5,271 nt of DNA from a virus. Taxonomy: Duplodnaviria > Heunggongvirae > Uroviricota > Caudoviricetes. The position numbers are program-made. Positions 987 through 3,900 of the stretch are shown here, one piece after another (position 1 is the stretch's first letter; the number at the start of each line of letters is the position of its first letter). The stretch is taken from positions 1 through 5,271 of IMG/VR virus record IMGVR_UViG_2713896905_000002; one strand, written 5' to 3'.

Positions 987-3900
987 ACTGGACCGCCACC
1001 GGGGACTCGAACCTCGCACACTCAACTTAAAGGGTTGACGCTCTTTCCTGATGAACTGGTGGCGGTTGGTGGCCCTTGCTGGATTTGAACCAGCGACCTG
1101 GCGATTATGAGTCGCTCGCTCTCACCACTGAGCTAAAGGGCCGGGCGCAGGATAATAACGTTACGAAATCAATGTTGCAAGCATTCAAGAATCACCTGGT
1201 TAAAAATTACCCTTACTTCCTCCACCAGCGCATTCACCATGTCTATCCGAGATAAGTGGCACAAAAAAACCCGCTTGTGGGCGGGTTTTGTTTGCTTTTG
1301 CCATCACGTACAAAATCGGCAAAATATCAGATTTGCATAAAATATATGCCTTTTAATCTACTTTTGCAATATTTTGCTGTGAAAATGCCGTCTTTTGTTC
1401 TGAGCGCGTTCTCGTCGTAAACAATAAAGCTTCACTATCCAGCTGATGAAAAATGTGTTTCATTGCAATCCAGTGACCAGTATATGTTTTGGACCAGTTT
1501 TTAGTTGTCACTCCCACCAGTGATGCCAGCTCTTGGTATTCATAGGTCTCACGCCCTGCCAGTTCGCTCTTCACATCCTGTGCTGCCAGCCAGATTAACG
1601 TCTTCAGGCGATCCAGTGTTTTACCTGCAATTTTTCTGGTACCCAACAGAGCCTTAAACTCGCTCCATGCCCACTGCGTTATGGCAACCTGATGCTCCCA
1701 GCGAATATTTTCACTGTAACTCCACAGCAACCATGCTTTCTGATGTTCATCGAGAGACAAAATCGCACGCCGCCATGAAGAGGTTGAAAACTCGACCGAA
1801 CTGACCAAGGCGACAGATGAACCTTTTGCGTACGACTGTTTACCGGAAATCGGCGGATTATCCAGCGTAATCATCTTGCCAGTTACCACATCCAGAATAC
1901 GCGGTTTCTTTCGTTTGTATGTACCAGTATCAAATTGTGCATGCTCCTGCCAGACTTCAAGCTGACCTTTCATTGCTCCGTTCAGGTCAGCAGTAGCTGC
2001 CATAAGTTGCTCACGAACATATTGTAAATATTGGGTATTCATGCGGCAGCTCCTTTCAGTGTTTTGGCGTAATTCTTCAGTATTTGGTAATCGGTAAAAA
2101 CAGAACCGGGGAAACGATATAAGCGCAGGCACACCCAGCGACGGCGAAGGAGTTCTGATATATAAGACTCAGACATCATTCCCCGGTTCTCCAATATCTG
2201 TTTCACTCATCATCCATAACTATCTGTAACTGCCCCCTTTGTAACAGCTCTTATATTGCTATATGGAATAGCCATAACTAATTCATTTAAAATCAATAAA
2301 TAACATTATAAAAACACAAAACACCATGCAAACACACTTTACAAAAGCACTACCACATTAAAAGTAGGTAATAAAAATTATAATAAAAATAAATTCATTG
2401 TTTATCACACATAATTATAAAACACCATATTGATTACGCCCCTTGTATTATAAATACACGTATGTAAAATACGCGCCCTATTCAAAAAAAAGGAAGACAA
2501 TAACATATGAAAAAACGTGTCATCGCTGGGGGCTTTATTGCTCTGTCATTTACCGCATATTCAGCTATCGCGGACAGCCTTGCATTATCATTAGCAAATG
2601 ATGATGCAGGGAAGTTGCAACCAATACTTAATGATATTTATGGCAATAAACATGAAAACAGAGATGATTACTCACAAGGCTTATTTCTGGGATATAGCCA
2701 CGATATATCAGACTCGAGTCAGTTATCTCTCCATATTGCGCAAGATATTTACTCTCCGTCAGGCAGTAATAAAAGACACAACACAGCTGTAACTGGAGAC
2801 AGAGCTTTTAGTGCATACACTCACACAGGTATTGAATGGAACGCCCTTGCTAATGAGTGGATTCGTTATCGATTAGGTACTGACATAGGTGTTGTTGGTC
2901 CAGACGCAGGCGGTCAGAAAGTACAAAATAAAGCTCATGAGATTATTGGTGCAGAAAAATATCATGCATGGGATGATCAAATAGAGAATCGTTACGGTTA
3001 TACTGTAAAAGGGATGCTATCCGTGACACCAAGCATAGATATTTTAGGTACTAATATTGGATTATACCCAGAAATTTCTGCTGTTAGTGGGAACTTATTT
3101 CAATATGTAGCATATGGCGCAACCATTGCCATCGGTAATGACAGAACCTTCAATTCGGATAATGGCTTTGGTCTGCTGGCTCCACGTGGTTTAATGCATA
3201 TGTCCGATACAAGCGGATTCAAATACAAGATTTTTGCAGGTATGGAAAGACGAGATGTCAATCGCAACTATACTCTCGAAGGAAAAACAATACAGACGAA
3301 ACAAACGACAGTATCGCTAAACAAAACTGTTGATGAATATCAAGTTGGCGCAACAATTGGGTATGCACCTGTAGCCTTCACACTAGCATTTAATAAAGTA
3401 ACATCAGAATTCAAGACAGGGGATGACTATTCATTTATAAATGGAGCAATCACCTTCTTTTTTTAACTGAATTGAATTCAATCAAAATAACATAAGCCCA
3501 ACAAAAACATAAAGTGCGAAATGAATGCTAGCTCCATTTATTTCGCACTATAAAAGGTTAAAAGTTGCAATAAAATAATAAAATGACTCAGTTACGAAAA
3601 CCAATAAACTGTGGCCAGTAGTGAGTCGCTCATCATCGGGCTTTTTGGCGAATGAAATTTAACTACGCTTTCGAGTCTCATGCGCCTTCTCCTTGTACCT
3701 GAATCAATGTGAGGTTTCCGCAGAACACTGCGCCAGTATCGATATACATCTGGTTGGCAAATTTGAGTGGTTTCACTGCTGGCGTATGACCAAAGATGAA
3801 CGTGTCCGCGCCTTTGATTTCTTTCACGATCCCGTCTTGTGAGTTGCTGATTCGTTCGCGATTCCAGATTACCTGCTGATTATCAACTGGCTTTCCAAAC

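Follow-up and report, generated by a model that had tools for sequence, protein, structure and literature searches.

The window analysed here is the whole 5,271-nucleotide (nt) stretch of the Caudoviricetes virus record IMGVR_UViG_2713896905_000002 (positions 1 to 5,271). On its minus strand, ARAGORN called four adjacent transfer RNA (tRNA) genes, namely Gly(UCC), Thr(UGU), Lys(UUU) and a tRNA with the anticodon CAU (Table 1). The third of these, called tRNA-Lys(ttt) at 989-1065 and carrying the anticodon UUU, is the gene in question. According to Pfam, the minus-strand order is NinF, NinG, metallophosphatase, Q, tRNAs, P21-type holin and lysozyme, as in a lambdoid late region, which bears out the phage context proposed in an earlier, sequence-only reading of this DNA. 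The CAU ('Met') neighbour is a tRNA-Ile in the annotation of the Prokaryotic Genome Annotation Pipeline (PGAP). We argue below that the gene at 989-1065 comes from a phage arginine tRNA, and that it is, with a probability of roughly one half, a decaying copy with impaired decoding.

Table 1. Features of the tRNA array and its upstream region (window coordinates).
Feature	Position	Strand	Basis
tRNA-Gly(UCC), 100% identical to host glyT	833..907	-	ARAGORN, Rfam 64.9 bits
tRNA-Thr(UGU), 100% identical to host thrU, AriB site U36-A-A-U-C-A41	911..986	-	ARAGORN, Rfam 73.8 bits
tRNA-like gene of the argN family (K type), 77 nt with its encoded CCA, rare C8/U11 allele	989..1065	-	ARAGORN, Rfam RF00005, argN homology
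3' acceptor strand GUGGCGG, discriminator U73 (992), encoded CCA (991-989)	989..999	-	sequence
T-arm CGAGG-UUCGAGU-CCCCG, A51·C63 mismatch (1014/1002)	1000..1016	-	sequence, Rfam alignment
Anticodon loop CCUUUAA: C32, C33 (1032), U34-U36 (1031-1029), A37, A38	1027..1033	-	sequence, family table
C8	1058	-	alignment with loci L001 and L002, allele table
CAU-anticodon tRNA, first gene of the array, PGAP tRNA-Ile (Ile2 type)	1067..1142	-	ARAGORN, Rfam 72.5 bits
Sigma-70-like promoter TTGCAA-17-TATTAT, then GC-rich CCTGCGCCC, directly upstream of the array	1152..1180	-	consensus match only
GC-rich hairpin between Q and the array; T runs on both strands	1258..1290	-	sequence; reported on the + strand

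Read as its reverse complement, the gene is CCGCCAC CA GUUC AUCAGGAAA GAGC G UCAAC CCUUUAA GUUGA GUGUG CGAGG UUCGAGU CCCCG GUGGCGG U CCA. The unusual residues listed in the sequence-only reading (C1-G72, C8, C33, UUU and U73) were all recovered, as was the perfect acceptor stem, in which 989-999 and 1059-1065 form 7/7 pairs beginning with C1-G72. The T-arm, described there as perfect too, has 4/5 pairs, with the A51·C63 mismatch in CGAGG/CCCCG. The anticodon stem is complete (5/5 pairs), and the D-stem consists of three Watson-Crick pairs and one G·U. A cloverleaf can be drawn. Residues that are close to universal in tRNAs are U8, A14, G18-G19, U33, a purine at 37, T54-Psi55-C56 and A58. The gene keeps A14, G18G19, A37 and UUCGA, and has C in place of both U8 and U33. 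U8 normally forms the tertiary pair U8·A14, which C8 cannot. C8 distinguishes the window allele from the commoner allele of the same gene and from every other family member, all of which have U8, and it is linked with U11 (window 1055), by which the C11-G24 pair of the D-stem becomes a U11·G24 wobble. Thermodynamic folding, known to be a weak method for tRNAs, gave a minimum free energy (MFE) structure other than the cloverleaf for the alleles with this loop (-26.9 versus -23.1 kcal/mol), and we give this little weight. Reading the loop in a shifted frame, as a UUA (ochre-reading) anticodon, was also considered from the sequence and found no support.

When the gene was searched alone and with lax filters, the Rfam tRNA model RF00005 matched it with 33.5 bits (E = 5.8e-6, cut-off 29); a scan of the whole window found the three neighbours (64.9-73.8 bits) and not this gene. 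The Rfam score and the clear homologs in thousands of genomes show that the resemblance is more than chance similarity. Rfam scans of the window and of the family loci gave tRNA or nothing, and no other Rfam family; matches to 'Plastid-ycf2' were discarded as the antisense strand of tRNAs.

The origin of the gene can be read from its relatives. Base for base and over its full length, it aligns with the middle gene of the Stx2-phage array (ileZ-argN-argO), the Arg(UCG) gene argN; these names are reportedly those of the 933W genome paper. The first gene (CAU) and the promoter-like sequence upstream of it are identical in the two arrays, and both arrays lie between Q and the late genes. Downstream, the window has its host-identical Thr and Gly genes, whereas the Stx-phage array, which has been described as 'two tRNA-Arg and one tRNA-Met' (PMC7946995), has argO. 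C1-G72, U73, A20 and the T-loop are common to argN and the window gene. In contrast, argN has a canonical loop, CUUCGAA, with U33 and the anticodon UCG, and scores 54.8 bits, whereas the window gene combines CCUUUAA, A51·C63, C8 and U11·G24 with its score of 33.5 bits.

Similar arrays were collected by a scan with two anchors only, the last part of the CAU tRNA and the first part of the Thr tRNA, so that the middle gene was not selected on. At least 120 flank-anchored arrays with at least 31 different inserts were obtained, with family members in the slot after the CAU tRNA. The inserts were of three kinds: genes with the loop of the window gene, which we call the K type, canonical Arg(UCU) genes, and forms with a shorter loop. 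The Arg(UCU) relatives carry the stem-loop UCAAC CUUCUAA GUUGA, with U33, and a perfect T-stem. Their anticodon stem is identical to that of the K type, and the two loops, CUUCUAA and CCUUUAA, differ by two transitions, U33 to C and C35 to U. C35 is the main anticodon determinant for arginyl-tRNA synthetase (ArgRS), and forms the arginine identity elements together with A20; of these the window gene has A20, and U in place of C35. The discriminator that marks lysine identity is A73; the window gene has U73, and its closest relatives are Arg(UCU)/Arg(UCG) genes rather than Lys genes. C1-G72 is common to the whole argN family and U73 occurs in many of its members. Both features, pointed out as atypical in the sequence-only reading, are thus present, but as traits inherited with the family, neither peculiar to this gene nor informative on lysine identity. 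By its sequence, the gene at 989-1065 is a damaged descendant of a phage arginine tRNA of the argN / Arg(UCU) lineage.

The fit to the Rfam tRNA model declines step by step. The neighbouring tRNAs score 65-74 bits and the Arg(UCU) type scores 56.4 bits; the major K allele (U8/C11) falls to 44.4 bits, and the window allele to the value given above. For the complete E. coli genomes, the best match in each record was banded by its identity to the window allele. Six records fell into the band of at least 99%, being identical to the window allele, and those listed are unannotated. The 95-99% band comprised 532 records; those listed mostly have the U8/C11 allele, annotated as tRNA-Lys, and the 98.7% matches among them are unannotated. 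A further 259 records were found at 90-95%, with the 76-nt K allele, again without annotation, in those listed. In the one record read, this 76-nt allele has a 1-nt D-stem deletion and G3·U70, and lies in an Ile-K-Arg(UCU) array. The 259-record band includes O145 and O103 strains, and in E. coli O145 RM11626-C1 (L298, 401-476) the 76-nt allele adjoins an ISEc20 transposase gene.

PGAP annotation was taken as a proxy for tRNAscan-SE, which we understand PGAP to use. The same contrast as in the bands was found within arrays: where the K gene is identical to that of the window (L002), Ile, Thr and Gly are annotated with nothing between, whereas tRNA-Lys is annotated where the U8/C11 allele is present (L001). 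Of the two tool checks proposed in the sequence-only reading, ARAGORN did call the gene, and the pseudogene check, by this proxy, spoke against a working tRNA: the U8/C11 allele is accepted as tRNA-Lys, but in the listed records no annotation is given to the window allele (matches of 100% and 98.7%) or to the allele with the D-stem deletion.

In 66 flank-anchored K arrays, the K gene had 16 segregating sites, 13 of them non-singleton. Copies differing from the major allele made up 41% for K, 9% for Ile2 (CAU) and 23% for Thr; these are raw counts uncorrected for shared ancestry, and Gly was left out of the comparison owing to an alignment artefact. Several of the K variants break stems (G24A, G24U, G42A and the deletion of U12). 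The sequences indicate that the K lineage is probably under relaxed constraint, with the window allele among its more damaged members. Among 185,579 species representatives scanned, the K type was confined to E. coli and Shigella, and we therefore regard it as a young lineage. For such a young lineage, the constancy of the K loop says little about selection. It should be added that the scans of genome collections demanded exact matches to parts of the gene, and that all claims of conservation rest on the positions that were not so conditioned.

We therefore favour, with a probability of about 0.5, the reading that the gene at 989-1065 is a copy in decay, impaired in decoding yet still transcribed and excised along with its array. 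Within the Escherichia-restricted K lineage, the change from CUUCUAA to CCUUUAA removed C35 and the near-universal U33, and the window allele has taken two further hits, C8 and U11·G24, on top of A51·C63. Its transcription would be shared with the neighbouring genes, both from the promoter-like sequence at 1180-1152 and in the Q-dependent late transcript. Because its acceptor stem, T-loop and CCA are intact, it would presumably be excised by RNase P and 3' trimming, to give an RNA that probably adds little or nothing to lysine decoding. The window allele would then be drifting towards a pseudogene, hitch-hiking with the useful Ile2, Thr and Gly genes. The case for decay is built on the fall in score, the lost U33, U8 and C35, the T-stem mismatch, the rarity of the window allele and its lack of annotation, the D-arm-damaged alleles and the youth of the lineage. 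It is further supported by the descent from argN, by the excess polymorphism of the K copies, and by the wider family, in which the anticodon loop alone escapes constraint.

Several observations weigh against this reading. The K-type gene is present in about 800 E. coli records, and its major allele is accepted as tRNA-Lys by PGAP. The excess of polymorphism over Thr is modest, about 1.5-fold in segregating sites per site and uncorrected for phylogeny, and variants have arisen within the C8/U11 sub-lineage itself (C4U, and U63 with G73). Moreover, decoding by C33-bearing tRNAs is possible, if less efficient. The comparison with argN also shows eight stem differences, all of which fall in four matched pairs: 7-66, 27-43 and 30-40 are Watson-Crick in both genes, and 51-63 goes from G·U in argN to A·C. 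The search for compensatory stem changes in homologous arrays, suggested in the sequence-only reading, was thus positive, and because the differences are matched, the K lineage appears to have been shaped by structural constraint for much of its history. Finally, 16 of the 43 distinct family sequences have A·C at 51-63, and every one of these has a non-canonical loop. Since short-loop relatives from several genera carry the mismatch too, it is a stable trait rather than fresh damage.

Of the three options offered in the sequence-only reading, decay is nonetheless the best for the window allele, because the stems are not all intact and the PGAP proxy is against a working tRNA. Intact stems had been the ground for leaning the other way; with the T-stem mismatch and the U11·G24 wobble, only the acceptor and anticodon stems are perfect. 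The option of another role is alive at the level of the family, since relatives keep the body while losing a fixed anticodon loop, as shown below.

An alternative concerns the evasion of anticodon nucleases. Phage tRNAs are established as a counter-defence (PMC10264068), and are now viewed as counter-measures to defences that cleave tRNAs, among them PARIS, Old, HepS, PrrC and retrons. AriB of PARIS cuts Lys(UUU), Thr(UGU) and Asn(GUU); it needs U36-A-A-U-C|A41, and cleavage is abolished by U39A and impaired by A41C and U16C (PMC12409363). Lys and Thr tRNAs of phage T5 together rescue T7 infection from PARIS (PMC12409363; PMC11464382). HepS of Gifsy-1 cuts Thr, Ile and Ser tRNAs (PMC13043305), and the isoacceptors Thr(UGU) and Gly(UCC) are both among the tRNAs depleted by P2 Old. 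The window array thus overlaps known nuclease targets, and the gene at 989-1065 might be a functional tRNA-Lys(UUU) that escapes host anticodon nucleases (PARIS AriB, PrrC, RloC) and sustains late protein synthesis once the host tRNA-Lys has been cleaved. It has UUU with A37, its major allele is a tRNA-Lys for PGAP, and it adjoins the other prime AriB target. With U36-A-A-G-U-U and C16, it also has neither the AriB site U36AAUC|A41 nor U16, as judged by sequence comparison only. In these respects it resembles the tRNA-Lys(UUU) of T5, which is also phage-borne and differs from the AriB-sensitive E. coli tRNA-Lys at positions 39, 41 and 16 (PMC12409363; PMC11464382).

The T5 tRNA, however, has been shown to function and to rescue infection, whereas the window gene is known from its sequence, has C33 for U33 and U73 for A73, has lost U8, and carries the A·C mismatch in the part of the T-stem where EF-Tu binds. 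The differences in the anticodon stem that would make it resistant (UCAAC/GUUGA) were inherited from the Arg(UCU) relatives and did not evolve for lysine; in fact, wherever the gene departs from the Lys consensus, the difference either comes from the Arg relatives or amounts to the loss of a universal residue. A large share of the K copies is damaged, and Thr and Gly next to the gene match the host genes exactly, so that they are not resistant variants. Taken together, a nuclease-resistant lysine tRNA seems to us an unlikely explanation of these sequences. The prophage Thr keeps the AriB site UAAUCA and, because it is identical to the host gene, could by its sequence add dosage only, not resistance.

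A dedicated anti-PARIS pair of the UUU and Thr(UGU) genes was considered separately and rejected, since the host-identical Thr/Gly module was found with every type of middle gene. On the host chromosome, tyrU lies between thrU and glyT; the prophage Thr-Gly pair is without tyrU.

The short-loop relatives show what else a gene of this family may be. They occupy the same array slot in many Enterobacteriaceae and have loops of 5 or 6 nt that differ between most variants; forms from Klebsiella and Citrobacter have 4-nt loops, and some have longer stems (loci L123, L134, L135, L146, L171, L174, L199-L252 and others). Their almost constant body is CCGCCAC UA GCUC AUCNGGAA GAGC G RCAAC [loop] GUUGU AGUA CGRGG UUCGAGG CYYCG GUGGCGG N CCA. 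ARAGORN calls on these forms were inconsistent (Phe, Leu, Stop, Ser, Pro, Tyr, Arg, Gln) or '???', and Rfam has no family for them, giving a weak tRNA match or nothing. An identical 68-nt body was found with seven different 5-nt loops in 20 loci. The flanks of these loci were mostly unalignable and the adjacent CAU-tRNA (Ile2) region was only 83-95% identical.

A family scan with one genome per species was conditioned on the first 16 nt and part of the T-loop only. Of its 54 matches, 53 had a perfectly complementary 3' acceptor strand followed by N-CCA. They came from at least a dozen genera (Escherichia, Shigella, Salmonella, Klebsiella, Citrobacter, Enterobacter, Buttiauxella, Dryocola, Cedecea, Pluralibacter, Yokenella, Kluyvera, Edwardsiella and others), and often lay between unrelated flanks and without neighbouring tRNAs, at stand-alone chromosomal sites. 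In the 43 distinct family sequences, cells of the acceptor, D and T stems were paired in 97.4% of cases, as against 37-52% in slid controls, with double-sided changes at 7-66 (C-G 33, U-A 9), 3-70 and 51-63. A20 was invariant (43/43), and the discriminator varied among sub-families between A, U, C and G. Across the family, then, the loop behaves as an unconstrained and the body as a strongly constrained sequence. The gene apparently belongs to a widespread, seemingly undescribed family of tRNA-shaped RNAs that keep the tRNA body and have no fixed anticodon; literature searches gave no description of the gene at 989-1065 or of its family. Judging from the pairing and the conserved sequence, the family clearly keeps this body for some purpose that would be independent of the anticodon.

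We also considered hypermutation of, or diversifying selection on, the anticodon loop, and set it aside, since a lack of constraint over a long divergence suffices and a faster-than-neutral rate is not needed; comparison of the flanks of the identical-body loci gave no evidence for such a rate. In some Ile-X-Arg(UCU) arrays (L020, L031, L092 and L054, Stx-like), the anticodon arm of the middle gene is replaced by 27 nt (GACGACACGATAACAGGGTTGTTGGTG), and the acceptor, D and T arms are kept; ARAGORN made no call on these genes.

One member of the family is chromosomal. This 81-nt element, which encodes its CCA and has the loop CCAGGA on a 7-bp stem, was found in 5,169 of 5,426 complete E. coli genomes (about 95%), at an identity of at least 99% in 4,822 records. 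It is located between yahL and yahM, where its final 11 nt run into the annotated start of yahM. Only 1 of its 81 columns varies between E. coli, S. flexneri, E. albertii, E. whittamii, E. ruysiae and Escherichia sp. E1V33, and a TTGACA-16-CATAAT promoter match about 90 nt upstream is conserved across the same set. The open reading frame (ORF) yahM, by contrast, shows poor conservation, and E. whittamii and E. ruysiae lack it. The MFE structure of the element is the cloverleaf. It has neither a PGAP annotation nor an Rfam match, and literature searches gave no description of an RNA from it; yahM is still listed as uncharacterised (PMC11551758). Examples of the element are found in E. coli HT-948 (L297, 3501-3581) and in L205, L208, L210, L232, L235, L240, L243, L244 and L251.

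These relatives raise the question of whether the window gene is itself a working member of a non-decoding family, in which the anticodon loop is dispensable and the functional part is the body, made up of acceptor stem, D-arm with A20, T-arm, a helix replacing the anticodon arm, and CCA. The RNA might act as a decoy or competitor where defence nucleases recognise tRNAs by their body, or it might bind a general tRNA-binding protein, ArgRS or RNase P for example. Such a family is favoured by the variable 4-, 5- and 6-nt loops in one and the same slot, by bodies that stay identical next to a diverging Ile2 region, by the covariation and the invariant A20, and by the constancy of the promoter-bearing 81-nt member while the yahM ORF decays or is deleted. 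As for the K type, it shares the acceptor stem and the A51·C63 T-stem with the short-loop forms, and the major K allele fits the family body consensus CCGCCAY-UAGCUCAUCNGGA(A)-GAGC ... CGRGG-UUCGAGK-CYYCG-RUGGCGG-N-CCA, including that T-stem. The window loop, although 7 nt long, is non-canonical by virtue of C33. The window allele, however, does not follow the consensus at positions 8 and 11. Unlike the short-loop bodies, that of the K type is polymorphic (41% of copies off the major allele, D-arm-damaged alleles common). The varying discriminator argues against a single role dependent on aminoacylation, and in the P2 Old study phage tRNAs replaced the cleaved tRNAs and did not inhibit the nuclease. 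We therefore regard it as possible, though rather doubtful, that the gene at 989-1065 works in this way. Equally tentative is the combined proposal that phage tRNA-Arg gave rise to an undescribed class of tRNA-sized non-decoding RNAs with a constant, working body, kept in prophage arrays and chromosomes throughout the Enterobacteriaceae and including the core-genome copy at yahM, and that the K type is still a functional member of it and no relic.

The location of family members at mosaic junctions with unrelated flanks, and the common use of tRNA genes as integration sites, would also fit a role at the level of DNA, as an attachment or recombination site whose tRNA shape is incidental. We consider this most improbable. 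The covariation keeps the cloverleaf of an RNA, the CCA end has been retained together with the consensus of the T- and D-loops, and the E. coli copy has its own conserved promoter match. Nor was an integrase apparent among the nearest ORFs of the inspected stand-alone copies, as judged from N-terminal sequences only.

A comparable gene has been met before under another label. In Yersinia phage YeP1, the depositors' 'tRNA-OTHER / tRNA-Pseudo-TTG' (L299, 1501-1575) belongs to the same family and lies between Q and the holin. The gene order there is Q - X - CAU tRNA - Gly(UCC) - holin, with the family member first; the order of the slots thus varies, and the position between Q and lysis is kept. 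A pseudo-tRNA label implies junk, whereas the body of the family is conserved across genera and covaries, unlike ordinary pseudogenes. The tRNA-like domain of tmRNA and YrlA (Y RNA-like) may also be compared: both combine a tRNA-like acceptor with a T-arm and a D-arm, and lack an anticodon loop that decodes. They are, however, parts of larger RNAs with known partners (SmpB and Ro/Rsr), whereas the family described here is tRNA-sized, with a 7-bp acceptor stem, an encoded CCA and a short helix for an anticodon arm.

If the gene at 989-1065 is a decaying copy, the 'tRNA-Lys' calls in hundreds of E. coli prophages should be taken neither as lysine-decoding capacity nor as anti-PARIS tRNAs. The relatives matter more, with a body conserved across genera and a promoter-bearing copy in most complete E. 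coli genomes; if what we suggest for them is true, the best-studied bacterium would hold a small RNA of a new kind.

As to the surroundings of the array, the hairpin between Q and the tRNAs is a putative tR'-like late terminator. Over this hairpin and T-run region (1258-1395, minus strand), the Rfam models for isrK, isrJ, OrzO-P and amino-acid leaders gave sub-threshold matches. Full-score matches to isrK, C4 and sRNA-Xcc1 were found upstream of the array in a related locus (L124), and STnc100 lies beside members of the family in L134 and L245. A 319-amino-acid outer-membrane protein of the LpxR family (2507-3466, Pfam E = 2.5e-39), which is the lipid A deacylase family, is encoded on the plus strand, with the phosphatase gene on one side and Q on the other. 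The GC content is 32-41% at about 2101-3600, compared with 39-53% in the rest of the window, and from its sequence the stretch with the LpxR-family gene looks like a moron.

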